From an uncultured Bacillales bacterium (GTDB taxonomy: Bacteria > Bacillota_I > Bacilli_A > RF39 > UBA660), in assembly GCA_948433085.1 (NCBI GenBank), contig CAOJDP010000001.1, positions 15,642 to 79,641 on the forward strand: 64,000 nt of DNA. The letters run 5' to 3'. Each line of letters opens with the position of its first letter. Positions within the stretch are counted from its first letter, which is position 1. Made by a program: the position numbers and the translations under genes. Shown in pieces: positions 4,624 to 60,554 of the stretch. The notes under the pieces are model-generated. The model worked only from the letters and a program-made list of their open reading frames with translations, searched no databases and was not told the DNA's origin.

Positions 4624-5868
4624 CTATTTCTTCACATATCCTTTATCATGCTTTTCCTTTTCTTCAAATGTATTTAAGAATTGTTCTATTGCTTCTACAT
4701 CATTATCTTCTATCCATTTTGCAATATTATGATAAACGGTTTGATTTTGTTTTTCTTCAATATCTTCAATATATTTCTTAAATTTCTTTATATATTCTAA
4801 ATTGTTTGTAGCTTGCATTGCTTCCCATAATTTTTCAATTGGGGCGCCTTCTACATCACAAGCAAACTTATAAATATATTCTGCATTCTTTGTTTGGATT
4901 ACTCCTTCTGCTAGTTTTTCAATTGGGGCTCCTTTTACATCATGTGCAAACATATAAATATATTTTGCATTCCTTGTTTGGATTACTGTTTGTATTACTG
5001 CTTGTATTACTACCTCTGCTAGTTTTTCAATTGGAGCTCCTTCTACATCACAAGCAAACTTATAAATATATTCTGCATTCCTTGTTTGGATTACTCCTTC
5101 TGCTAGTTTTTCAATTGGAAATCCTTTTACATCAATAGCAAACATATAAATATATTTTGCATTCCTTGTTTGGATTACTGCCTCTGCTAATTTTTCAATC
5201 GGAGATCCTTTTACATGACATGCAAACTTGTAGATATATTTTGCATTTCCTGTTTGAATTATTGCTTCTGCTAATTTTTCAATTGGAGATCCTTCTACAT
5301 TACATGCAAACTTGTAGATATATTCTACATCCCCTATTTGTATTACTGCTTCTGCTAATTTTTCGATTGGAGATCCTTCTACATTACATGCAAACTTGTA
5401 GATATATTCTACATCCCCTATTTGGATTACTGCCTCAGCTAATTTTTCAATTGGGGCTCCTTTTACGTCACAAGCAAACTTGTAGATATATTCTACATCC
5501 CTTGTTTGGACTATTGCTTCTGCTAACTTTTCAATTGGGGCTCCTTCTACATTACATGCAAACTTGTAGATATAATATGCACCCTTTATTTGGATTACTG
5601 CCTCAGCCAATTTTTCAATTGGGGCTCCTTCTACATTTAAAGCAAACCAATAGATATATTCTGTTTTTCTTGTTTGGATTATTCCTTCTGCTAGTTTTCT
5701 GATTGGAGATCCTTTTACATGACATGCAAACTTGTAGATATATTTTGCATTTCCTGTTTCTACAATTTTTTGTGCTAATTCTTCTTTTTCTTTTTTGTTT
5801 AAACGATTTGCTAAAACAATTATTTTTTCAATATCATCTATAGACATGATAAATTCTAACTTATCCAT
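4624..5868 (-). CDS. Tandem-repeat protein with about 12 copies of a 28-aa unit (consensus roughly YIYKFACNVEGAPIEKLAEAVIQTGNAE). Family unknown; probably a helical solenoid.
   Basis: A 414-aa ORF has unique termini (N-terminal MDKLEFIMSIDDIEKI..., C-terminal ...KWIEDNDVEAIEQFL...). The interior is near-identical 28-aa repeats, with a 12-aa slippage-like insertion (VIQAVIQTVIQT). There is no signal peptide. Confidence 0.7.
   Translation of the reverse strand: MDKLEFIMSIDDIEKIIVLANRLNKKEKEELAQKIVETGNAKYIYKFACHVKGSPIRKLAEGIIQTRKTEYIYWFALNVEGAPIEKLAEAVIQIKGAYYIYKFACNVEGAPIEKLAEAIVQTRDVEYIYKFACDVKGAPIEKLAEAVIQIGDVEYIYKFACNVEGSPIEKLAEAVIQIGDVEYIYKFACNVEGSPIEKLAEAIIQTGNAKYIYKFACHVKGSPIEKLAEAVIQTRNAKYIYMFAIDVKGFPIEKLAEGVIQTRNAEYIYKFACDVEGAPIEKLAEVVIQAVIQTVIQTRNAKYIYMFAHDVKGAPIEKLAEGVIQTKNAEYIYKFACDVEGAPIEKLWEAMQATNNLEYIKKFKKYIEDIEEKQNQTVYHNIAKWIEDNDVEAIEQFLNTFEEKEKHDKGYVKK
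4776..5751 (-). repeat. About 12 copies of an in-frame 84-bp coding tandem repeat
   Basis: The DNA period is 84 bp; for example gctagtttttcaattgg... recurs at about 4910, 5021 and 5110. The plus-strand ORFs 4818..5138 and 5157..5702 are periodic shadows of this repeat. Confidence 0.85.
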
Positions 5869-5887
5869 ATTTCACTTCCTTAACTGT

Positions 5888-5918
5888 TTATTTTAATACT
5901 TATCAATTCTATAGTCAA
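5888..5918 (-). promoter_or_regulatory. Putative sigma-A promoter for the repeat-protein gene
   Basis: On the minus strand, TTGACT (5913-5918), a 17-nt spacer and TAAAAT (5890-5895) lie just upstream of AAGGAAG and the ATG at 5868. Confidence 0.35.
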
Positions 5919-6649
5919 CACTTACACGCTTTTTTTGAATAGGAGAACATGTAATTGATTCTAAAGTCTTTTATTGTGATGCACAAAGGAGTGATCAAAA
6001 ATCACAAATTGAATTATCACATGAATACATTAGAAGATACATTCCAAAAGGAATATCAATCAATGAAATACTAAATTGGACACTTTTTAGAATAAAATAA
6101 TTAAAAAAGCACAACTTTTGTTGCACTTAAACTTTCCAATTTCTAATTAAACTTTTATTTCTACCAAGTGTTTCACTTACTTTTTCATTTCACCTTTTTA
6201 AAATTATAGAAATTGCATAAAATTTGTTTTAATAATAAGGAAGTGTGATATATGATCTCTTTATTGATACATTTTGAAATATTAGATAATCTAGTAATAT
6301 AATTTAGAAAAACATAAATCAATCTATTATAATGACTATCTATGAAACTTCATAAAAATCTATAAATTTTGTTAATAGGATAGTTTTAATTCTACATGAA
6401 AAATTAAATGCTATTCTAACGAAACTTTTCCAAAAAAAGACAACTCCATAGATAACTGAGCAACTATCAGAAAGATTGTCTTTCGCACACTTAGATTCTT
6501 CTATAGTAACTTTAGGTAAAATAAAAACTTACCTTTATAGCACACTTGTATAAACTTTTGTACAATTGCTTATTTTTTAAAACAAAACACAATGAATTGC
6601 AAAAATTTTTTTAAGTATTTCTACAGATATTAAAATAGATTTCTTGGAT

Positions 6650-7867: not shown

Positions 7868-8075
7868 CTAGCTTCATCTCTTCTTTCAATCTTAAAAATA
7901 ATGCATCACTGATTGGTTTTAAAATGACTTGATCGTTTGCTAAAATATATTCATTAATTGTAATTGTATCCATCGTAGCAAATGCAACATAATTTTTTCC
8001 ATGATAATGAATCGAATCAATATATTCATATTGCTGTTCCCCAATTGTAATCTCAAAAGAATTCATATACTTCAC
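7860..8075 (-). CDS. Small DUF1292-family protein
   Basis: It is 71 aa with the pattern ...YEYIDSIHYHGKNYVAF...ILKPISD...RLKEEM typical of the Firmicute DUF1292/UPF0473 family. Confidence 0.5.
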   Translation of the reverse strand: MKYMNSFEITIGEQQYEYIDSIHYHGKNYVAFATMDTITINEYILANDQVILKPISDALFLRLKEEMKLDV

Positions 8076-8124
8076 CTATTATTAGTATACCACAAAAAAA
8101 ACTTTTTCAAAAAAAATCTTACAA

Positions 8125-9318
8125 CTATAAGATTTCTTCTTTTAACTTGGGATTGGAAAGAACTTCTACCAATCGATCAATCTCTTCTTTTGTATTATAC
8201 ATTGCAAAACTAATGCGACAAGTATTTTTAATGCCTAATTCATCTTTTAATATTTTTGCACAATGATTTCCTGCCCTTACACATATGTTATATTTATTGA
8301 GATAAATTGCTAAATCTTGGGCAAATACATCTTTGATATTCATTGCAATAATACCACTTTCACTAAATTCATTATACAAAATAATATTTGGAACTGTTTT
8401 CAATGCAGTAATCGCATAAGTGTGTAACTTTTGTTCTTGTGCACATATTTGTTGAATTCCAACGGTTTGCAAATAATCTAACACACTGCCAAAGCCAATT
8501 ACACCAGCAATATTTGGCGTTCCAGATTCTAATCGTTGTGGTAAATCATCATAAATACGAACACCATCACTACTGAAAGAAGCATTCATTCCACCACCAA
8601 ATTCAATTGGACGCATTTGTTCTAACAATTCTTTTTTTCCATAAAGGACACCAACCCCTGTTGGACCATACATTTTATGCGCCGAAAATGCTAAAAAATC
8701 AATATCCATCGCCTGTACATCTACCTCAATATGAGGAACACTTTGAGCACCATCTATCAATACATAAATTCCTTTTGAATGCGCAAATGTATTGATTTCT
8801 TGTATCGGACGAATATCCCCAACTACATTCGTAATTTGTGCAATACTAATCACCTTGGTATTTGGTGTGAATGCTTTTTTTACATTTTCTAATGTTACTT
8901 TTTTATTGTCATCTAACTCAATATATTTGACAACAATTCCCAGTGAGTCCGCAAGTTCAAACCATGGTAATACATTAGATGCATGCTCACTTTTTGTAAT
9001 CAATACCTCATCTCCTTTATGAAGTATGTTCCCAAAAAAACCAAATATAATTTTATTCATAGAATCTGTTGTCCCAGCAGTAAATACAATTTCCTCTGTA
9101 CTTGCTGCATGAATAAAGTCTCTCACCTTTAAGCGAGTCCCTTCATAAAGTTCATCTACTTTCAAACTAATATCATAATCTCCACGATGTGCATTTGCAC
9201 TATATTCATTATAATATGCACTTGTACTTTCAGATAACACCCTTGGTTTTAAAGTGGTCGCACCATTATCAAAATAAATGATATCTCCCTTTAACATTGC
9301 AAAATCTTCCCGATTCAT
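8125..9318 (-). CDS. sufS: Cysteine desulfurase, SufS/class V aminotransferase
   Basis: Motifs FDNGATTLKP and the PLP-lysine region SAHKMYGPTGVGVLYG, plus the catalytic Cys in RAGNHCAKIL. It lies downstream of sufC and sufD. Confidence 0.85.
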   Translation of the reverse strand: MNREDFAMLKGDIIYFDNGATTLKPRVLSESTSAYYNEYSANAHRGDYDISLKVDELYEGTRLKVRDFIHAASTEEIVFTAGTTDSMNKIIFGFFGNILHKGDEVLITKSEHASNVLPWFELADSLGIVVKYIELDDNKKVTLENVKKAFTPNTKVISIAQITNVVGDIRPIQEINTFAHSKGIYVLIDGAQSVPHIEVDVQAMDIDFLAFSAHKMYGPTGVGVLYGKKELLEQMRPIEFGGGMNASFSSDGVRIYDDLPQRLESGTPNIAGVIGFGSVLDYLQTVGIQQICAQEQKLHTYAITALKTVPNIILYNEFSESGIIAMNIKDVFAQDLAIYLNKYNICVRAGNHCAKILKDELGIKNTCRISFAMYNTKEEIDRLVEVLSNPKLKEEIL

Positions 9319-20168: not shown

Positions 20169-21878
20169 TTATGGCTCAACAGGTGTTGCATGATACTTTT
20201 TTACAAATTGACCTTTTTCATTTCGACTTTTATTCATACAAATGTGTCTTTTATGGATTTGCTGTTTGTTATGAATATAACGGATTGCTTCGGTATCTAA
20301 TAACTGTGTTGTAAGTGGATGATATAAATAATTATGTATAGTATCTGCAGTTACACCAAATAGATTTTCTAATCTTTTTGTATCATAATTCTTTTGTTGC
20401 AAATAATAAAGAATCGTTTGCGTAGAACATAACATTGCTTCTATTTGTGAATCAGAAACATCTAGTTCATGAAACGAAAATTTACCTTCAATCAATTGAA
20501 CAAAATTTTCTTCTATTTTAAACTTCTCATAACAATCAGAATTTCTATAATGTTTCCATAACCCTACCAGTGTTTTAAACTTAGATAATTTTTGTATATT
20601 TTTTTCTAATCTACTCTTTCGCAGTTTTTCTAATTCCAAAATTTTCTCTAATTCACAGCCAGCAAAATTAGATCTAAAATAATTTATAATTTCCCATTCT
20701 TCTACTTGAATCTGTGCTGCTAAATCTCGGAAAAGAATAAAATTTTCTTGATAGTATGTATATAAATTCATTCCTTGGTTTATACATAACTCTATTTTCT
20801 TTGCATCATAGACAATTTCAGAAATAGATTCAAAAAAATGACATCCAAACAATTGGTCTATTTCTTTCCCATCTAGCAAATTAATCCCATATTTTTTTTG
20901 AAATTCTAATAAAGTGACCCCAGACATATTTAAATAGGATGCATACAGCGTTAAATAATATGCTACTTTAGTTATTTTATCAGATGGAAAACAATGAAGA
21001 TTATTGATAGAAATAAGACTTCTGATTTTAAGTTTACTCATAATTTTAGGTCCTACTAATACCTTTAACCATTCACTGTTCAAAGTCTCTTTCATATGCT
21101 CCCATCCAATTTTATTTTTTTGATTCGCCTCTTCTTTAGTTAAACTATCATTAGATAATCGATCTTTTATCCATTTTAATCCTTTTATTTTTCGCATTGA
21201 ATTCTCTTTTTTCAAGGTGGCAATCATGGAATCGATTCGTTCTCTTTCCTCTTCTGTTAATGCAAATATACGGCCTAAATTCCGCCATTGACACATTCGC
21301 ATAAGTCCCCTATTTCTTAGCTTATTTAATTCAAATAATTTGTCAATTTCCTGTTTTGTGAGTTCCTCTGCCATTAATGTATCAAATGTAAAAATAATAT
21401 CATGTTCTTCTAAATGGTAATACGCAGCAAGCGCATCAAATGTAACATTATGTTCTAAAAAATAAAAATAAAATTTCATCTTGTCTCTTTGTCTCAATAA
21501 TGTAATATTATTGGCTTGCATTTTTTCAAAGCTATAATTGGATATCCCCTTTACTAAATAATCACGATTTAAAAGCTGGCAAATTTGGTCTACTGTATAA
21601 TTTTTTTCACGAGCAACATCTCCAAACGTTAGATTACCTGCTTTTAAAGTTCGATAAACATCTAATGCATCTTTATTGGCTTTTCTTTTTTGATTTTCCT
21701 CTTTAAACTTTTTCAATAAATTAACGTCTACATGATTCGCATAATAATAAAGTTGCTTAGAAAATTTACTTTCCTCTATTTCATAGTCACTTAGTAATTC
21801 TTCAATTGTAATATTACGCATCTTTGCTTTCTTATCAAAAAACGCTTGTTTTATTTTTTCCAATTCAGTCATATCCAT
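20169..21878 (-). CDS. Large hypothetical protein with multiple HTH-like segments
   Basis: 569 aa. The N-terminal MRNITIEELLSDYEI and several further helix-turn-helix-like stretches occur. No catalytic motifs recognised. Confidence 0.5.
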   Translation of the reverse strand: MDMTELEKIKQAFFDKKAKMRNITIEELLSDYEIEESKFSKQLYYYANHVDVNLLKKFKEENQKRKANKDALDVYRTLKAGNLTFGDVAREKNYTVDQICQLLNRDYLVKGISNYSFEKMQANNITLLRQRDKMKFYFYFLEHNVTFDALAAYYHLEEHDIIFTFDTLMAEELTKQEIDKLFELNKLRNRGLMRMCQWRNLGRIFALTEEERERIDSMIATLKKENSMRKIKGLKWIKDRLSNDSLTKEEANQKNKIGWEHMKETLNSEWLKVLVGPKIMSKLKIRSLISINNLHCFPSDKITKVAYYLTLYASYLNMSGVTLLEFQKKYGINLLDGKEIDQLFGCHFFESISEIVYDAKKIELCINQGMNLYTYYQENFILFRDLAAQIQVEEWEIINYFRSNFAGCELEKILELEKLRKSRLEKNIQKLSKFKTLVGLWKHYRNSDCYEKFKIEENFVQLIEGKFSFHELDVSDSQIEAMLCSTQTILYYLQQKNYDTKRLENLFGVTADTIHNYLYHPLTTQLLDTEAIRYIHNKQQIHKRHICMNKSRNEKGQFVKKYHATPVEP

Positions 21879-22057: not shown

Positions 22058-23350
22058 CTACTTTTTAGAAGGATTTCCACTCTGATTCATACTGACCTTT
22101 ACTTTTTGATGCTCTTTTGAATATAAAGTAGATGCATACTTTAAAATAGAGTAACTATACTGGAATGGGAACAAACTTCCTTGTGAGGTTGTAGTTAAAA
22201 AATGCATATATAAAATATTGGCCATTTCAATTTGTGATTCATCAATCCCTAGCGCAAGTGCTGTTTTTTCATAGGAAAAATTATGAATTGCAAGTTCCCC
22301 ACATAAATAATAAGGCATAATATTTCCAATCTCTATATGTGCTTTTAACCATTCAATTTTTTGTTCTACTTCCTTTTTATAATCGATATTATTTCCACAC
22401 AAATGACTGTACGAATGAGAATTTGAAACATGATTATTTTGGACAGCCATATTCATTTGTATTTTTTGTAAAACACAAGGTTGAAGCAAAGAAGCATACT
22501 GCTGAACAGATTGTAATATTTTTATAATCTCTTTTTTCCTTCGATTTTTTGTTTCTTGTATCCTATCTATATTTCTATCTCTATAGTAAGCTGAAATCAC
22601 ATTTAAATCTGAAATTGCCTTTGGCGTTGCACAATAAGTATTTTCTACTACAATCCTTCTCAAATAGGGATCTTTCATCCAGTATTGACCATATGGAGGC
22701 CTTTGGGTTTTACGAATATGATCTATTTGTTGTTTATGATGCATAATTAAATCTATAATCATTTGATTTTCAATTTGCAACTTTAAATTGGAAAAGAAAT
22801 ATTTATCTAAATTTGCATACTGAATAAATTCTTCTTGTGTAAATAAACTATCTAGATATAGTACAATTGTGCGATAAAGCATTTGATATGGAACATTCTC
22901 TTTTGTGCATAACTGTTGATAAACATTTTTTCCCTTATTTTTTCCCAATTTACTCACTAAATAATCCAAATCAAATAGATGGAGAAAAAATAACATTTGA
23001 TTTACTTTGTATAATTGACAATACTCTGCTAGTTCCTTCTTATTCAACAAAACAGAATTCACAATGTATCTCAAATCTTCACTTTCCATACAAATAAAAT
23101 TTTTTTCGTATGACTTTTTTAATTGTTCTATATTTTTTTCTCTTTGTCTTGCAATGGCTTCCCATGAATACATTCCAAAATGACTTATAATGGTTTGTTT
23201 TCCTTCTTCACTTAAAACATATGTAACTTCTTTTTCACCAATATTTAGTAATGCAGCAATTTCTGTTTCTAACTTTCCCTCTAAATAGTATTGAATCGTA
23301 GACCGCATTACAGATAAAGCACTTACAAATTCTTTTTCTTTATTCATCAT
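22058..23350 (-). CDS. Large hypothetical protein with sigma-70 region-4/LuxR-like HTH segments
   Basis: 430 aa. An N-terminal HTH ([17 protein letters not shown]) and a C-terminal HTH ([20 protein letters not shown]) are present. The start overlaps the lepA stop by 8-11 nt. Confidence 0.5.
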
Positions 23351-25599: not shown

Positions 25600-26631
25600 T
25601 CACCCCAAGTATTCTTGTATTATTGTAGCTAAAGCTTCTATTGTATTCATTACCTCTTCGATAGAATTATCAGTACCCCCACATTCAATTAAAACAGAAT
25701 TGGGGCTTAAATTTTGATTATAAATTCCATTAACACCTGGTCCCTCTTTCGTCATCACACCCCTACTCAAAGTAGGATATTTTTCTTTAATTTTATTAGA
25801 TAACGTATTGGCTAATGTAAGATTAGATTCTGCATTCTCATGCTCCATACCTACAACAAATAAAACCTTCGCATAACTTTTTCCGTTAATTACCGTAGTG
25901 GATGCAGTTTTGGGAATCGCATCCCTATGTAAATCAATCAATAATTTGATACTAGGATATTTATTTAATGTATCTGTAATAAAAAATTTACTGGCTTGAT
26001 AACTTTTAGAGTAATCCCAATTATTTAAATTTAAAAAGTCTGTAATATTAGAAGTTTCTACAATTGTTGGAATCCCCACTTTATTTAATTTTTCTTTCAA
26101 TAAATAAGAAGCCATTAACACATTGGGTGTGATATTATATTCTTCAAAATTAGCATTACTATACCCTTCCAATTGGTGCGTATTATAAATATAGACAAGA
26201 GGCTCTGTTACAACTGTAGGATTGGGATCTTTGATATAAACAGAAGGGTCTTCTAAAAAATTATCATTATCCTGTAATCCAGGGTCTTCTACTGACACAA
26301 CAGGATCTACTGGTGTTATTTCATTTTTCATTTCATATCCAAATACTGTCTCTAAAATACTAATTGGTTTTTTAAAATCTATATTAGATAAATTTTTTAA
26401 AAATCGATTGACAATATTATGATTGCTTTTTTCATAGAGTAAATGGTGATTGGAATCTTTAAGCAAGGATAAAATAAAAGCTTCATTGTTATCTGCTAAT
26501 CGGATATTTAAAAATAGTCCGATTATCCACTGATAAAGGAAAAAACATAAAATAAATATTACAACAAATTTAAGCCACGTATGTTTGTTTTTCTTCTTTT
26601 TTGAACGAAATTGTTTTCGCATATGTATCAC
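25600..26631 (-). CDS. spoIIP: Stage II sporulation protein P (SpoIIP)
   Basis: An N-terminal TM segment, then YIYNTHQLEGYSN, LLIDLHRDAI and GVNGIYNQNLSPNSVLIECGG (SpoIIP amidase-like signature). Conserved spoIIP-yqxA-lepA synteny supports the call. Confidence 0.85.
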   Translation of the reverse strand: MIHMRKQFRSKKKKNKHTWLKFVVIFILCFFLYQWIIGLFLNIRLADNNEAFILSLLKDSNHHLLYEKSNHNIVNRFLKNLSNIDFKKPISILETVFGYEMKNEITPVDPVVSVEDPGLQDNDNFLEDPSVYIKDPNPTVVTEPLVYIYNTHQLEGYSNANFEEYNITPNVLMASYLLKEKLNKVGIPTIVETSNITDFLNLNNWDYSKSYQASKFFITDTLNKYPSIKLLIDLHRDAIPKTASTTVINGKSYAKVLFVVGMEHENAESNLTLANTLSNKIKEKYPTLSRGVMTKEGPGVNGIYNQNLSPNSVLIECGGTDNSIEEVMNTIEALATIIQEYLG

Positions 26632-26699
26632 CCACTTTAATGTATTTTGATTTTACAACATTATGTATGCGGATTCTGTCGGATTTCCTTCCCTATTTT

Positions 26700-27185
26700 T
26701 TAATAGGGAAATTTTTTTATATCAAAAAAAACATTTTCTAGTGAAGCATCAGACGAACTTGTCTTACGAAAAATGACGGATACATTTTGGGGAGTTGTTA
26801 TGGACAACATTTTTTGTTGTACAAAATAAATTTCTCCTACATTTTGTAAAGTAATTTCGAGAAAATCAGATTGTGTTCCATTCACCTCTATTTGAATGGC
26901 AAGAACTGCATTTGTAGAAGAAAGTGTCTCTCTTAATCTTCCACTGATTGCAAGTTCATAACAGCCACTCTCATTTAAAGTAATTCGATTATTATTAATG
27001 AGGAAAATATTTGTATTATTTGGCAATTTTTTAGGACTAGAAGTTTGTAAAATACCAGCAGTTGAGGTATTTGCAAAATCTGTATACATAATTGCAGAAA
27101 TACCAGCTGGTCCAGTAGGCCCAGTTGGGCCTGTTTCCCCTATTGGAAGAACAAAATCTAAAATGTATTCTGAATTTGATTGCAT
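26700..27185 (-). CDS. Mini-collagen (G-X-T)-repeat protein with a C-terminal jelly-roll-like domain; putatively BclA-like spore surface protein
   Basis: I set the start at ATG 27185 (MQSNSEYILDFVLPIGETGPTGPTGPAG) because AGGAGG lies 7 nt upstream. This removes the overlap implied by the longer track ORF. It is a paralog of the adjacent gene, sharing ESGCYELAISGRLRET and SDASLE. Confidence 0.55.
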   Translation of the reverse strand: MQSNSEYILDFVLPIGETGPTGPTGPAGISAIMYTDFANTSTAGILQTSSPKKLPNNTNIFLINNNRITLNESGCYELAISGRLRETLSSTNAVLAIQIEVNGTQSDFLEITLQNVGEIYFVQQKMLSITTPQNVSVIFRKTSSSDASLENVFFDIKKFPY

Positions 27186-27195
27186 ACTTAACCTC

Positions 27196-27687
27196 CTATT
27201 TTGAATAAGGAAATGGTAATCTTTGAATTTGTAATGTGACCGCTTCAATAGATGCATCTGAATTACCATTCTTTTCGAAAACTAACATAACAGTTTGCAA
27301 AGTCCCATATTGCCCAATTTTTATTTGTGAAAAATAAGTTTCCCTCGCGCCTTGTTGTAATTGTACAGTAATTAAATTATTACTTATCCCACTGGTATTT
27401 CTTGTTCGCAATTTTAATGTTGCTCCATTCGCAGTAGTTGTTTCTTTTAATCTACCACTGATGAAAAATTCAAAATATCCTGTCTCTGTAAATTGAATAG
27501 ATTCGTTTGTTATTGTATAGATATTAGAATTGGATGGAAAGATAGTTGCACTAGAAATGGTAAGATTTTGAGCAGTCGTAGCATTATGATAGGAAACAAA
27601 TATTTTTGGTGCATGAACAATCGGTCCAGTAGGACCCGTCTCCCCACTTGGTATAATAAAATCTAAACAGTAATCATGTTCTTCCAT
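27196..27687 (-). CDS. Mini-collagen (GETGPTGP) protein; tandem paralog of the preceding gene
   Basis: MEEHDYCLDFIIPSGETGPTGP then a C-terminal domain with TGYFEFFISGRLKET and SDASIEAV, paralogous to 26700..27185. Confidence 0.55.
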   Translation of the reverse strand: MEEHDYCLDFIIPSGETGPTGPIVHAPKIFVSYHNATTAQNLTISSATIFPSNSNIYTITNESIQFTETGYFEFFISGRLKETTTANGATLKLRTRNTSGISNNLITVQLQQGARETYFSQIKIGQYGTLQTVMLVFEKNGNSDASIEAVTLQIQRLPFPYSK

Positions 27688-27784
27688 AGATCCCTCTTTC
27701 TATCTTATTCTATGTAATATCAAAAAAAATAGACTACATAAGTATTCTAATCAACACTACAAAAAAATTACGCTAACACGTAAT

Positions 27785-28429
27785 TTAATTCTCCATTAAA
27801 GTTTCATGTAATACTTCTTCCCTAGTACTCAAATCTACATCTTCAATACGATCAACACGACACATTTCAGCAGCTAAAATACATTCGATTTTATTGACTG
27901 CATCCTCCACTTCATCATTCACAACTACATAGTTATACTTTGTCATTTCATTGATTTCTTGATAAGCTGTTTTAAAACGTGCAAGTACTTTTTCCTTCGT
28001 TTCTGTTCCTCTATTTTCTAACCTTTGTTTTAAAATGTCCATACTTGGAGGCATTAAAAATATGAAAATAGCATCTGGAACTAGTTCCTTTACTTTTAGT
28101 GCCCCTTGTACTTCAATTTCTAAAATAACATGGATTCCTTTACTTCTCTTCTCCTCGATTCTATCTTTAGGCGTCCCATAGTAATTTCCATTGTATTCTG
28201 CATATTCTAATAATTCATTCTTAGAAATTTTTTCTTCAAAAGCTTCCCTCGTAAGAAAATAATAATGCGTTCCATCCTTTTCTTCCCCTCTAGGAGTTCT
28301 TGAAGTACAAGAAATGGAAAGAAAACATTGATCATTTCGTTTCAAAAATGCATTACAAATTGTATCCTTACCTGCTCCACTAGGTCCCGATAAAACAATT
28401 AAAGCACCATATTTTTTCTTTTTAATCAT
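27785..28429 (-). CDS. gmk: Guanylate kinase
   Basis: P-loop LSGPSGAGKDT and the guanylate-binding SCTSRTPRGEEKDGTHYYF...EYAEYNGNYYGT. The start was moved to MIKKKKYG (28429); the track extension to 28549 would overlap the upstream deacetylase gene. Confidence 0.85.
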   Translation of the reverse strand: MIKKKKYGALIVLSGPSGAGKDTICNAFLKRNDQCFLSISCTSRTPRGEEKDGTHYYFLTREAFEEKISKNELLEYAEYNGNYYGTPKDRIEEKRSKGIHVILEIEVQGALKVKELVPDAIFIFLMPPSMDILKQRLENRGTETKEKVLARFKTAYQEINEMTKYNYVVVNDEVEDAVNKIECILAAEMCRVDRIEDVDLSTREEVLHETLMEN

Positions 28430-28472
28430 AAGTATTTCCCTTTCTAGTAGGGATATTATAACAGGTTTTAAA

Positions 28473-29882
28473 CTAGTTTGCAATTCTATGTTTAATTTGA
28501 GGTGTTGTTTCTGTAATATTAGAAAATGTATATCCATTATTTTTTCCATAATGAATAATATCCCTTAAAGCATTTAAAGTATAATAATTATTCTCATAAT
28601 CATGCATTAAAACCACATTGGTATGGCTATTTAAACTATTGGTTACATTATGATAAACTTCAGCAGCACTATGAACTCCTCCTGCATCCCCACTTCCAAC
28701 ATTCCAATCAAAATATGTATAACCTTTGGTAATTAACGCCTTCGCAAGTCGTGTCATAATTCCTGGATTAAAACGGCTTACAGTATTAGAACTTCCTCCT
28801 GGAAATCTCGTAATAGTTGGTTTTTCTCCTGTAATACTTTCTAGTTTATTAGCCATCTGACGCAAATCATCAAAGAAAGCATCTTCAGAGGCATAAATTT
28901 GTTTATAGTTATGCGTGTAACTATGAATTGCAATTGTATGTCCATCCTCATAAGCTTGTTGAATCAAATAATTTAAAGAATCACTATGATTGATAATGAA
29001 AAAAGTAGCTTTGACATTTTCCTCTCTCAATATTTGTAATATGCCAGGCGTAATTGTACGACTAGGGCCATCATCAAAAGTTAGATAAATTGTTTTCCCA
29101 TTTTCAATCGGCTTTGGAATCACACGTACCACTCTTGTTTCTTCTGCTGTATGTCCAAAATGATCTGTAACTGTATATTTTAATTCATAATTTCCAATCG
29201 TCTGCGTATTAACCGTTCCTATTATTTGCACATCCTGTGTAAGATCACCATCACAAGCATCCATTGCTTGATAACCAGGTTCTTGAAAAGATTCATTTTG
29301 GTAAACCGTGAATATACTAGGTCCTTGTAAAGTGATAACAGGAGCTTCTGTATCTTGATACACAAACTCTCTTGCAATAACGAATGGATTATGAGAACTA
29401 TCTTCTACTGTATAAATCCATCGATCATACAATTTATGAATAACCACCTTATCAGTAAGATCGCCATCATAATTATCATTCGCATGATATCCTTGTTCTA
29501 CATATGGATGATTAGGGCATAGTTCAATTTTTAAATCCCCATCTAAGATAATAATTGGTTTTTCTTCTTCTCTTACTTTTACAATTCTTTCTTTTTGAAT
29601 TTTTTTATTATGAAACGATATTTGATAAATAATTTTATAATCACCTACCTTAGTCGTATCTACATATCCTTGTATTTTTATTGGATATTTTTTGTGGAAA
29701 GGAAAGGTCTCTACAGTTGCACCTAATTCCTCATAAGATTGATTTAACAACACTTGAATCTGTTTGTCTCCATTTAATTTTATTTTAGGTGTTTTATTCC
29801 AAAGTAAAAAAATACCAATTATAAAAATACATACTATACTTACAATTATTCCATATTTATAATACTGCTTCACATACAACAC
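28473..29882 (-). CDS. Membrane-anchored polysaccharide deacetylase (NodB domain) with two Ig-like DGDLT repeats
   Basis: An N-terminal TM segment and two DUF5011-like segments (NYDGDLTDKV, ACDGDLTQDV). NodB motifs TFDDGP, HSYTH and the conserved catalytic residues are present. Confidence 0.75.
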   Translation of the reverse strand: MLYVKQYYKYGIIVSIVCIFIIGIFLLWNKTPKIKLNGDKQIQVLLNQSYEELGATVETFPFHKKYPIKIQGYVDTTKVGDYKIIYQISFHNKKIQKERIVKVREEEKPIIILDGDLKIELCPNHPYVEQGYHANDNYDGDLTDKVVIHKLYDRWIYTVEDSSHNPFVIAREFVYQDTEAPVITLQGPSIFTVYQNESFQEPGYQAMDACDGDLTQDVQIIGTVNTQTIGNYELKYTVTDHFGHTAEETRVVRVIPKPIENGKTIYLTFDDGPSRTITPGILQILREENVKATFFIINHSDSLNYLIQQAYEDGHTIAIHSYTHNYKQIYASEDAFFDDLRQMANKLESITGEKPTITRFPGGSSNTVSRFNPGIMTRLAKALITKGYTYFDWNVGSGDAGGVHSAAEVYHNVTNSLNSHTNVVLMHDYENNYYTLNALRDIIHYGKNNGYTFSNITETTPQIKHRIAN

Positions 29883-37727: not shown

Positions 37728-39542
37728 TCATGAAATTGTCTTTATTTGAAATATTCTAAGTGCATTTAAAATCGTTAAAACGGTTACACCTACATCTGCA
37801 AAAACTGCCCCCCACATACTAGAAATCCCTATCAAACCTAAAAATAAAATGAGTATTTTAACGGTTAATGCAAAGATAATATTACACTTCACAATTTTTT
37901 TTGTTTGTTTGGCAATCTGAATAGCTGTTAAAAGTAAACTAGGATCATCGTTCATAATTACAATGTCGCTTGCTTCAATTGCTACATCACTTCCAATCCC
38001 ACCCATGGAAACACCAATATCTGCTTTCATCAAAACAGGCGCATCATTCATGCCATCACCAACAAATATTATCTTATTTGTTTCCTGCTCAGCTTTCACA
38101 AGTTCTACTTTATCTGTAGGAAGAAGATTTGCATAAACTTCATCCATGTGCAACTTCATCCCTACTTCTTTTACAGTTCTTTCATGATCCCCTGATAATA
38201 ATATGGCTTTTTGAATGCCAACCTCTTTTAAATGATCAATCAAACCATAAGCGGTTTCTTTTATCGTATCTTCTATTATAATAGCACCGATATATTCATG
38301 ATTACAGGCCACATAAACAATAGTCCCTAATGTATCAAGTTTGGAACATACAATATTATTTTCTTGCATAAACGTTTTAGACCCTACATGTATTTTTTTG
38401 TCCCTTATTATTACTTCAATTCCCTTCCCTACAATTTCCTGATAAGATTCTATGGTGTCTGTAAGCGGTTTTGAATATGCTTTTTGAATGGACAAAGCAA
38501 TTGGATGATTTGAATTACTTTCAGCAAGTGCGGCTAAGCGCAAAATTTCCTCCTTTCTTTCTTTTGGGATAATCTTAGACACTTCAAATTTACCTTTCGT
38601 AAGTGTTCCTGTTTTATCAAATACGACTGTGTTCATCTGATCTAAATTTTCTAACGATAATGTATTTTTAATTAAAATCCCCTTTTTACTGGAAACACCG
38701 ATTCCTGAGAAAAAACCAATTGGAATGGATACCACTAAAGCACATGGACATGAAATCACTAAAAATAGGAGTGATTTATAAAACCATATAGAAAAAGGTT
38801 GATGAAAAATAACAGGAATAACTGTAAGCAACATAGCGAATATCACAACAATTGGCGTATAATAATTTGCAAACTTGGTAATAAACTTCTCTTGCTGTGT
38901 TTTCGTTTCACCAGATTGTTCCATCAAACGAAGAATTTTAGAGACTGTAGATTCTTGATATAATGTGGTTACTTTTATTTCTAAAATACCTTCTTTATTC
39001 AAACAACCGCTGATGACAACATCATTTGGTTTTACTGTTTTTAAAATAGATTCTCCTGTCATTGACGATGTATCTAAATGGCTATTCCCAGATAAGATAA
39101 TACCATCTAATGGTATTTTTTCTCCTGGTTTTACAATTATAATATCATTTACTTTGATTTCTTCGATTGGAATGGTAAAAACTCCATTTTTACGTTTAAG
39201 ATGCGCTACATCACTTCTTAAATCCATAAGTTTACCAATTGCATCCTTCGTTTGATCGGTCGCAAAATCACTTAAATATTCACCTATTTGATAAAATAAA
39301 ATAACAGCCACTGCTTCTGGATATTCTTTTATGATAAAGGCCCCCAGTGTCGCAATTACCATAAGAAACTTTTCATCCAATATTTTGAATTTTGGAATAT
39401 TTTTAATGACATCTATCCAAATCGGATATGCAAGTAAACTATAAGCCAAGATGAGTACGATAGGATAAATTGCATTTTTAGGTAGGAAAAAGGAAACCAA
39501 AAATAAAAATCCACCCATTCCTATTTTATAAATCGTTTTCAT
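37728..39542 (-). CDS. cadA: Cd/Zn-type heavy-metal P1B-ATPase
   Basis: CPC motif in TM6 (SCPCALVVSIPIG), phosphorylation motif DKTGTLT and hinge GDGMNDAP. There is no N-terminal HMA domain. It is co-operonic with an ArsR regulator. Confidence 0.85.
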   Translation of the reverse strand: MKTIYKIGMGGFLFLVSFFLPKNAIYPIVLILAYSLLAYPIWIDVIKNIPKFKILDEKFLMVIATLGAFIIKEYPEAVAVILFYQIGEYLSDFATDQTKDAIGKLMDLRSDVAHLKRKNGVFTIPIEEIKVNDIIIVKPGEKIPLDGIILSGNSHLDTSSMTGESILKTVKPNDVVISGCLNKEGILEIKVTTLYQESTVSKILRLMEQSGETKTQQEKFITKFANYYTPIVVIFAMLLTVIPVIFHQPFSIWFYKSLLFLVISCPCALVVSIPIGFFSGIGVSSKKGILIKNTLSLENLDQMNTVVFDKTGTLTKGKFEVSKIIPKERKEEILRLAALAESNSNHPIALSIQKAYSKPLTDTIESYQEIVGKGIEVIIRDKKIHVGSKTFMQENNIVCSKLDTLGTIVYVACNHEYIGAIIIEDTIKETAYGLIDHLKEVGIQKAILLSGDHERTVKEVGMKLHMDEVYANLLPTDKVELVKAEQETNKIIFVGDGMNDAPVLMKADIGVSMGGIGSDVAIEASDIVIMNDDPSLLLTAIQIAKQTKKIVKCNIIFALTVKILILFLGLIGISSMWGAVFADVGVTVLTILNALRIFQIKTIS

Positions 39543-60429: not shown

Positions 60430-60554
60430 AAATAACCTCCTTCATTAAAATCTCAGACTCACCATTAAGGCACATAACTGTTTTTACCTTTTCTGTGTGG
60501 TTGTAGAGTGAGGCTCTACACAATATAGGATTTTACCATAAAAAACCTTTTTTG
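60430..60554 (-). promoter_or_regulatory. Putative L21 leader (ribosomal-protein autoregulatory 5' UTR)
   Basis: A 125-nt leader precedes rplU, with a 7-bp hairpin TGTAGAG-tgagg-CTCTACA (60503-60521) and an AAGGAGG RBS. Firmicute rplU-prp-rpmA operons typically carry an L21 leader. Confidence 0.4.

Follow-up and report, generated by a model that had tools for sequence, protein, structure and literature searches.

Whether uncultured gut Bacilli coat their spores with relatives of BclA is the question raised by two small adjacent genes, A and B, which lie beside the sporulation gene spoIIP in a 64,000-nucleotide stretch of contig CAOJDP010000001.1 from an uncultured Bacillales bacterium (this whole stretch is referred to as the window, and all positions are counted within it). 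Spore surface proteins govern the adhesion, clumping, immune encounter and host-to-host passage of gut bacterial spores, and what is known of them derives almost wholly from the Bacillus cereus group together with a small number of clostridia. An initial annotation, made from the DNA letters without database searches, had described the products of A and B as tandem paralogous mini-collagen proteins and possible BclA-like spore surface proteins. The analyses described here lead us to favor, with somewhat better than even confidence, the reading that A and B are a mother-cell-expressed operon for two BclA-like spore-surface proteins, which would form trimeric TNF-like knobs on a vestigial collagen neck and be attached via an N-terminal strand.

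Paralogous proteins with a predicted TNF/C1q-like head

Both open reading frames (ORFs) are real and lie in tandem on the minus strand where they had originally been placed, and the two proteins are paralogs with a similarity far beyond chance (37% identity over 158 amino acids (aa), BLASTP E 7e-33). The strings ESGCYELAISGRLRET / TGYFEFFISGRLKET and SDAS(L/I)E, quoted earlier as shared, are present in both. The gene A protein begins MEEHDYCLDFIIPSGETGPTGPI, and the gene B protein begins MQSNSEYILDFVLPIGETGPTGPTGPAG when read from the ATG at 27185. The ORF list gives gene B as 26700-27269 (189 aa), which is over-extended by exactly 28 codons, as had been proposed from an AGGAGG-type ribosome-binding site (RBS); for gene B this correction is right, since the equivalent start Met is found in all of its homologs (P0001 with 161 aa, P0002 and P0003 with 157 aa) and independent gene calls in three other loci (L003-L005) likewise give a gene B of 161 aa.

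The fold prediction that the initial annotation had proposed as a check bore out its TNF/C1q-like C-terminal domain. Single-chain AlphaFold2 predictions, run with an 86-sequence family alignment, reached a predicted local distance difference test (pLDDT) score of 88.9 for gene B and 87.1 for gene A, and both models are jelly rolls in which residues ~30-158 form a ten-stranded all-beta domain, preceded by ~30 residues of low confidence (pLDDT 53-76). Foldseek comparison of the gene B model with the PDB placed structures of the BclA C-terminal domain on top (3twi_A at E 3.2e-7; 2r6q, 2z5w, 3tyj and 1wck), with the TNF ligands 4-1BBL, CD40L and APRIL interleaved among the top matches, and the top matches of the gene A model were TNF ligands (E 1.5e-7; target-normalized template-modeling (TM) score 0.53-0.70 among the top 50). 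The Foldseek probability was 1.00 for both the BclA C-terminal domain and the TNF ligands, with target-normalized TM-scores of 0.53-0.71 among the top 50. Trimer formation by the heads of A and B is to be expected from their analogy to BclA, BxpB and the TNF ligands.

Sequence comparison connected the pair to BclA by a longer route. Neither protein had a Pfam or NCBIfam match above threshold; the best were Lipin_N and Bro-N at E 0.006-0.045, and these assignments were dropped as below threshold. Close relatives were scarce, single-sequence searches of 5.8 billion proteins returning 4 and 2 matches. A profile of these relatives retrieved 266 proteins, mostly of ~300 aa, in a word-indexed search, and an exhaustive profile search of 50%-identity clusters yielded 244 representatives, 113 of them at E <= 1e-10. 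Collagen repeats (PF01391) were present in 74 of 86 aligned family members, and just 6 of the 86 matched the BclA C-terminal domain model PF18573 (BclA_C) at E <= 0.1. Distant members retrieved with the profile exceeded or came close to the gathering score of that model, which is 38 bits (P0306 at 47.1 bits; a 377-aa protein of L043 at 40.4 bits), and distant BclA_C-like small proteins share the N-terminal motif of the family described below. When 27 of the small, A/B-sized proteins were aligned with five BclA_C-positive proteins in hhalign, the match extended over the full length (probability 99.4%, E 1e-21), and a profile of those five reached B. anthracis BclA (1wck) at E 1.7e-8, the intermediates of this link having themselves been retrieved with the family profile. 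More direct comparisons were weak: gene B alone matched 1wck at E 0.7 in a PDB sequence search, and a profile of the small forms alone reached only OX40L in the PDB (E 0.1), on a G-x-Y-x-x-x-x-x-G strand. Judging from the predicted fold and these profile comparisons, we conclude that the head of A and B is a diverged member of the BclA_C/TNF-C1q superfamily beyond the reach of current models.

The conserved N-terminal motif and the short collagen segment

As had been noted from the translations, both proteins carry a conserved leader followed by a GETGPTGP collagen-like stretch, the Gly-X-Y runs being GET GPT GPT GPA G(IS) in B and GET GPT GPI in A. The leader common to both has the consensus Y-x-L-D-F-(V/I)-(I/L)-P-x-G. 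Across 27 aligned small proteins its Y and P are invariant and its F and G are at least 90% conserved, and no segment of the family is better conserved than the N-terminus (F-V/I-I/L-P). Approximately 40 of the best 150 cluster representatives from the exhaustive search have only 150-175 aa, align end to end with A and B, and carry the same motif with 2-7 triplets, which makes this mini form a stable architecture as opposed to a local truncation. The very short collagen region, originally called atypical, is thus not so within its own family: the alignments show the near stalk-less form to be fixed in a widespread mini subfamily, and not a quirk of this genome. Counting triplets across strains, another check suggested earlier, gave no variation, the number being identical in five metagenomic contigs of this species. 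To date, the family is unannotated and fairly widespread, with A, B and the scanned mini forms all lacking a Pfam or NCBIfam match above threshold; it represents a known kind of protein in a new form, in which the BclA head is kept, the collagen stalk is cut to a few triplets and the leader is replaced by another conserved N-terminal motif.

The longer relatives show where the mini forms begin. In the ~300-aa relatives and in the multi-module proteins P0258 and P0282, the strand x-L-D-F-x-I-P-x-G ends a repeated module of ~35 residues (T-x-x-V-G-x-x-x-T-G-...-A-x-V-x-x-x-G-...-L-D-F-V-I-P-x-G), and Gly-X-Y triplets always follow directly. Since this junction strand closes the last module in the long forms, the start of the mini forms coincides exactly with the final strand that precedes the final collagen segment. 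The short Gly-X-Y run is homologous to the genuine collagen of the longer relatives (the 74 of 86 members with PF01391), and the alignments therefore identify it as a true remnant of collagen, as opposed to a Gly-X-Y run arising by chance. We infer that the N-terminal strand registers the three chains at the trimer base, serves as an attachment peg, or both. The ~300-aa relatives (such as P0087 and P0007) share with A and B the head subfamily, the pre-collagen strand and an upstream CATAnnnTA box, but are longer by a helix at the N-terminus, two more collagen segments and two small beta modules that also occur in phage fibers; their head signature reads YEITLCGQISG ... NVNLIIKKY, compared with YELAISGRLRE ... 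DIKKFPY in A and B.

The module itself is a separate observation. P0258 (447 aa) and P0282 (758 aa) consist of 5-12 tandem ~35-aa modules ending in x-L-D-F-V-I-P-x-G, each followed by a few Gly-X-Y triplets. The module is not represented in Pfam and appears to be an uncharacterized 'collagen-interrupting' trimer module common to phage fibers and spore-type collagen-like proteins.

The pair is conserved beyond a single assembly. The five contigs of the same species differ by 0-1 nucleotides over A and B, and the gene A protein is identical to P0005, which is present on nine contigs (five shown). In a related species (L039) the order is a TraB-like gene, a deacetylase, gmk, an A-type gene (159 aa), a B-type gene (157 aa), spoIIP, a 114-aa ORF, two more ORFs and lepA. 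Its orthologs are 61% (A) and 62% (B, P0002) identical to those in the window, and since both paralogs are ~62% identical to their counterparts the duplication is older than the species split. Beyond L039 the gmk-A-B-spoIIP synteny was absent, P0003 and the long forms lying at other sites. Relative to L039, the ratio of nonsynonymous to synonymous substitution (dN/dS) was 0.22 for A and 0.30 for B, and 0.06 for spoIIP and gmk, all values being approximate with dS near saturation. Both paralogs are under purifying selection and evolve faster than their neighbors, as surface proteins would.

The upstream CATA-type box and the possible roles of the pair

CATA-type -10 boxes are a hallmark of the mother-cell sporulation sigma factors, the B. 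subtilis consensus being CATA---TA for sigmaK and CATACA-T for sigmaE. A box of this kind precedes gene A (Table 1), and the upstream regions of family genes from 40-odd loci contain CATAnnnTA, mostly 26-35 nucleotides (nt) before the start codon. The motif was found within 70 nt upstream of 28 of the 52 non-redundant family ORFs, whereas control ORFs taken from these loci had it in 28 of 453 cases (Fisher p 1e-16; background expectation 0.04 per upstream window), and many of the negative family ORFs are internal fragments or over-extended. An unbiased k-mer comparison also returned CATA as the top 4-mer (33/52 vs 97/405, p 2e-8) and TTCATA as the top 6-mer. In L039 the gene A ortholog carries CATACAATG at the same place as the gene A box, with tCtA at the same spacing upstream, and the family as a whole shows an excess of C and A at -17/-16 (13/24 and 20/24, respectively). 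Within the window, gene A is one of only four ORF starts with CATAnnnTA and an RBS within 50 nt, and a promoter scan gave no sigma-70-type match upstream of it. The sigmaK -10 box of C. difficile reads CATATAAT, with AC at -35, and the expression of bclA1-3 is sigmaK-dependent (PMC3789822). Taken together, the conserved sigma-type -10 box supports, indirectly, a spore-type (mother-cell) expression of the family.

Gene B would be served by the same promoter. Its RBS overlaps the stop codon of gene A, implying co-transcription and coupled translation, and no CATAnnnTA box was seen by eye just upstream of its corrected start (the motif scan had used the over-extended start); for these two reasons A and B probably form a single two-gene operon. 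Under the spore-surface reading, this operon would be transcribed in the mother cell during sporulation from the sigmaK/sigmaE-type promoter upstream of gene A, and the two proteins would be made in the mother-cell cytoplasm, the site of spore envelope assembly, so that neither would need a secretion signal. Trimerization via the head would bring the short collagen and the N-terminal strand into register at the trimer base, where they could act as a short attachment peg to a putative basal-layer protein, so that the outermost surface of the spore would bear a knob layer in place of a long hairy nap. Such a role is plausible, given the promoter motif and the analogy with characterized spore proteins.

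The resemblance to BclA lies in the predicted TNF/C1q jelly-roll head, the GPT-type triplets directly N-terminal of it, the lack of a signal peptide and the sigmaK-type -10 box upstream of A, the bclA genes of C. difficile being sigmaK-dependent (PMC3789822). A and B differ from BclA in being a tandem heterologous pair in an operon, in a head too diverged for a direct PF18573 match (PDB reference 1WCK), and in having 3-5 triplets compared with ~40 in B. thuringiensis BclA (PMC12357932), hence essentially no stalk. Their N-terminus, M-x(3-6)-Y-x-L-D-F-V-I-P-x-G, is a different conserved motif (Y-x-L-D-F-V-I-P-x-G) in place of the exosporium leader, and only its end, F-V-L-P-x-G, resembles the end of that leader, (Y/T)-(I/L)-P-T-G, or IYIPTG in F-Anchor (PMC12357932).

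A number of observations weigh against the spore-surface reading. Pfam searches of A and B at E <= 1 gave no match to PF18573 or PF01391, and NCBIfam at E <= 1 gave none to the exosporium leader TIGR03720; since the leader and an extended collagen region were looked for and not found, A and B belong to the TNF/C1q-BclA_C superfamily by fold and profile homology but are not BclA proper. The remote BclA_C homology holds through the profile links, and two features that define BclA proper, the leader and a real stalk, are lacking. As is known from collagen peptides, a run of 3-5 triplets does not suffice for a collagen triple helix to form on its own. No well-defined -35 region stands out, the only trace being the C-A preference at -17/-16, and sigmaK cannot be distinguished from sigmaE on the sequence of the A/B promoter; we leave the two undivided because the -35 consensus is weak and L039 has CATACAATG while the gene A box fits CATAnnnTA. 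The sporulation neighborhood invoked in the initial annotation is also thinner than described: spoIIP is verified by PF07454 and TIGR02867 and is the only verified sporulation gene beside the pair, 'yqxA' was named by position alone, the 114-aa ORF after spoIIP having no identifying Pfam match at E <= 1 (only DUF5640, E 0.065), and the neighborhood is otherwise one of housekeeping genes (gmk, lepA, a HemN-like radical SAM gene, ABC transporters). Finally, the predicted TNF/C1q fold does not by itself point to spores. Collagen plus a C1q/TNF head, initially taken as an exosporium signature, turned out to be unspecific: phage tail fibers and giant-virus proteins match the models equally, and in the viral structures of BFVD, phage and giant-virus 'collagen triple helix repeat' and C1q proteins were found at E 1e-8 to 1e-6, values equal to or better than those of the BclA matches.

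These viral matches raise the alternative that A and B are remnants or domesticated tips of collagen-like phage tail fibers with a C1q head, that is, receptor-binding proteins unrelated to the spore. Phage and giant-virus fibers (phrog_5073, phrog_30509; BFVD A0A6J5MA04) share with A and B the head fold, the order of collagen then head, and the junction strand, the motif x-L-D-F-x-I-P-x-G followed by collagen being found in fiber proteins such as L047 (...SSAAILDFTLQTGPTGPSGP...) and P0282. Gene B has weak PHROG tail-fiber matches (phrog_5073, E 0.0046; phrog_4120, E 0.0064) and the N-terminal modules of the long forms have strong ones (phrog_5073, 1.8e-24), whereas gene A has none. The fibers are, however, long (200-1300 aa), carry tail-attachment modules and reside in phage genomes, whereas A and B are proteins of 160 aa lacking a tail-attachment domain, encoded on the chromosome between gmk and spoIIP in an order kept in two species, with no phage gene nearby according to Pfam searches of the window neighbors. 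Two IMG/VR scans seeded by short peptide patterns, and not exhaustive, returned no head-domain relative, three loci matching only the N-terminal 'LDFxIPxG + GPTGP' junction inside long tail-fiber proteins. With the sporulation-sigma-type box conserved family-wide and both paralogs under purifying selection, we hold a phage origin of this kind to be very improbable. A vegetative-cell surface adhesin or secreted lectin-like protein could be argued for on the grounds that TNF/C1q heads are generic binding modules and that the collagen-like Scl proteins of streptococci are found on vegetative cells, but reading of the A and B sequences revealed no hydrophobic N-terminus, signal peptide, LPXTG sorting motif or transmembrane segment, sequence and Pfam analysis revealed no S-layer-homology or cell-wall-binding domain, and gene A is preceded by a CATA-type box and not by a sigma-70-type match, which leaves this as the least probable of the readings considered. 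Both the phage-derived and the vegetative role are disfavored by the genomic context, the promoter motif, the lack of a secretion signal and the lack of head relatives in the IMG/VR scans.

Other alternatives keep A and B on the spore and assign them a different place. BxpB/ExsF is a 167-aa trimeric spore-surface protein in which a short, disordered N-terminus precedes a jelly roll like that of BclA (PMC10470788), and it takes the leader peptides of BclA and F-Anchor in the clefts between its subunits. On this model the mini forms would not face outward as knobs but form trimers in the basal layer, into which the long collagen-like relatives would insert their N-termini. The size and broad layout of A and B (161-163 aa, a short flexible N-terminus of low pLDDT, then a jelly roll expected to trimerize) agree with those of BxpB/ExsFA, the exosporium basal-layer anchor of BclA (PMC10470788; PMC12357932), and mini and long forms are one family whose members can be neighbors, a mini gene clustering with other collagen-like genes in L040-L042. 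However, BxpB has no Gly-X-Y, and its N-terminal Cys for basal-layer cross-linking is not conserved in A and B; the mini forms always keep 2-7 triplets and the motif that precedes collagen in the long forms, and for that reason look like truncated stalked proteins and not platforms. Moreover, no BxpB/ExsF chain was among the PDB sequence matches at E <= 10 for single sequences or profiles (the presence of these chains in the PDB copy was not confirmed), and the 64-kb window holds no long-form collagen-like gene. We consider such an adaptor improbable. We doubt more strongly, if not quite as much as a phage origin, that A and/or B build a self-polymerizing fiber in which trimers stack head to tail like beads on a string, the N-terminal strand docking on the previous head and the mini collagen serving as neck, in parallel to the F-ENA appendages with TNF-like heads in place of DUF4183 heads. 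F-ENA, F-BclA and L-BclA are spore-surface assemblies that dock by short hydrophobic Pro-containing N-terminal peptides; F-ENA subunits are trimer-forming beta domains of ~96-124 aa whose short N-terminal hooks have a hydrophobic-hydrophobic-x-Pro core, and F-BclA docks via IILPH (PMC12357932). The F-(V/I)-(I/L)-P of A and B, within the best conserved segment of the family, loosely resembles IIQPF and IILPH, two conserved operon paralogs would suit a major and a minor or tip subunit, and gene A aligned marginally with the F-ENA-3a subunit 9N0B (E 0.23-0.77, GYYLLFINGAFQETS against GYFEFFISGRLKETT), a match that is not significant. Against a fiber, A and B have no DUF4183 (PF13799) match at E <= 1, and MEEHDYCLDFIIPSG and MQSNSEYILDFVLPIG depart from the hook signature M-P-psi-psi-polar-P-aromatic (PMC12357932), their motif starting 5-7 residues in, placing a hydrophobic side chain where the signature has a polar one and varying in the residue that follows the Pro; F-BclA, for its part, has ~700 residues of collagen.

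A broader proposition covers both arrangements, namely that A and B are a spore-envelope building block not described before, in uncultured gut Bacilli, with TNF-like trimers linked by the strand and a neck of 3-5 triplets into a bead-like stacked appendage or into ExsF-like sockets for the long relatives; we regard it as unlikely, although the least so of the alternatives. If it were true, A and B would be a major/minor pair or a heterotrimer pair, and the family together with its sporulation-type promoter would mark 'Tenericutes-like' gut lineages as spore formers with their own surface architecture. Should A and B be located on spores in any of these ways, they would provide an antigen or marker by which spores from uncultured gut lineages could be handled. 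They would also represent a natural module of minimal size, of the kind 'collagen nucleated by a TNF-like trimer', and a test case for how the length of the nap and the chemistry of its anchoring evolve. In practice, late sporulation genes of these genomes can be predicted from the conserved CATAnnnTA box.

Features of the locus and relatives at other sites

Table 1. Positions of genes A and B, their parts and adjacent features within the 64,000-nucleotide window.
Feature	Position	Strand	Basis or remark
Gene A (mini BclA-like, 163 aa)	27196..27687, including TAG stop	minus	ORF and translation
Gene B (mini BclA-like, 161 aa)	26700..27185	minus	start corrected to ATG 27185; homologs agree
Gene A RBS, GAGGG	27692..27696	minus	sequence read directly
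Gene B RBS, AGGAGG	27192..27197	minus	6 nt before ATG 27185; overlaps gene A TAG stop
CATAGAATA, mother-cell sigma (sigmaK/sigmaE-type) -10-like box	27706..27714	minus	27 nt upstream of gene A ATG
TCTA, possible -35-like element	27730..27733	minus	16-19 nt upstream of CATA box; tentative
Gene A N-terminal motif YCLDFIIPSG (residues 6-15)	27643..27672	minus	alignment of mini forms
Gene B N-terminal motif YILDFVLPIG (residues 7-16)	27138..27167	minus	alignment of mini forms
Gene A collagen-like remnant GETGPTGPI, 3 triplets	27619..27645	minus	sequence
Gene B collagen-like remnant GETGPTGPTGPAG, 4-5 triplets	27102..27140	minus	sequence
Gene A TNF/C1q-like jelly-roll head (residues 28-156), predicted	27220..27606	minus	AlphaFold2 and Foldseek
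Gene B TNF/C1q-like jelly-roll head (residues 31-159), predicted	26709..27095	minus	AlphaFold2 and Foldseek
spoIIP	25600..26622	minus	PF07454 2.3e-59; TIGR02867 181 bits vs cut-off 123
9-bp perfect hairpin TTCCCTATT-TTTT-AATAGGGAA	26689..26710	none assigned	overlaps gene B stop; z-score -2.97 on minus-strand RNA

The pair is flanked by gmk (guanylate kinase; 27785-28549) and spoIIP. The start of gmk is more likely at 28429, gene calls in other contigs using an internal Met (214 aa). A polysaccharide deacetylase (PF01522) fused to three bacterial surface Ig-like domains (PF16403) occupies 28473-29882 on the minus strand, and its 3' end overlaps the longest gmk ORF, an overlap that is removed by the internal Met start of gmk. 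Downstream of gene B, no canonical terminator was found before spoIIP on the coding (minus) strand, where the hairpin at 26689-26710 lacks a U-tract; a T-run follows it on the plus strand only, where no gene converges, and it would at best be a weak terminator before spoIIP. A CATA-type box, CATACATAAT, lies at 26660-26669 (minus), 47 nt upstream of the spoIIP ATG at 26622, as would be expected if spoIIP were transcribed in the mother cell (sigmaE-type) from a promoter of its own. The three other starts in the window that have CATAnnnTA and an RBS, at 39542, 39832 and 9318 (all minus), belong to a P-type ATPase of 604 aa, an ORF of 97 aa immediately upstream of this ATPase and an ORF of 397 aa, respectively, and may be further sporulation-controlled genes or chance matches.

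Two ORFs without a Pfam match at E <= 1e-5 lie on the minus strand between lepA and the HemN-like radical SAM gene, at 20169-21878 (569 aa) and 22058-23350 (430 aa), the latter conserved in L039. Together they interrupt the adjacency of lepA and hemN, which we take to be the arrangement in Bacillus. The only Rfam match at the gathering threshold in the window was a ribosomal protein L21 leader (RF00559, 42.4 bits; 60445-60512, minus), and Rfam detected no rRNA in the window.

Certain high-scoring matches in the searches with A and B were rejected or arose from repeats. The match of two profiles to a MutR regulator (E 0.0012 for profile A1; 0.052 for A3) is spurious, this being a helical protein and the match resting on a G-Y-Y-E-I motif. 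The top entry of the exhaustive search was P0174, with 7432 aa and 69 matched stretches, and it is one of the giant multi-repeat proteins (P0174, P0261, P0270, P0299 and P0300) that score highly via many short stretches. As P0261 illustrates, summed repeat scores can top a hidden Markov model list without any homology: this 2829-aa protein has Bacteroidota-style Ig-like repeats ('GNYSVVVSGxCG'), matches only over the short G-x-Y-x-x-x-x-S-G stretch of the 'GNYSVVVSG' strand, and was discarded as a relative.

The relatives identified in genome collections belong almost without exception to gut metagenome-assembled genomes labeled 'uncultured Tenericutes' or 'Bacilli bacterium', with Clostridium sp. 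CAG:433 and Firmicutes bacterium CAG:460 as further named genomes. A 50%-identical mini form (P0003) lies at another site beside a BclA_C-positive mini gene and a Cys-rich collagen gene, and the long form P0087 clusters with two other collagen or BclA_C genes. The ~300-aa collagen-like proteins of the 'uncultured Tenericutes/Bacilli' gut genomes (L006-L038 and L043-L045; in L043 at 1205-1819, 5414-6547 and 8001-8846) combine the same TNF-like head with a helix at the N-terminus, three segments of collagen and two small beta modules common with phage tail fibers. Their genes often occur in clusters of two or three with BclA_C-positive genes, and CATAnnnTA is present before nearly all of them, which suggests that these lineages sporulate and have nap proteins of their own. 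Additionally, a small collagen-like protein with a Cys-rich N-terminus (...YPVQGCCCSSRVIIGPTGPTGPTGP...) is encoded beside two mini BclA-like genes in L040 (1791-2027) and L041 (1761-2174). Its gene is also preceded by CATATATTA, and its clustered cysteines are reminiscent of the disulfide connectors in spore proteins of the Ena and CotY type.

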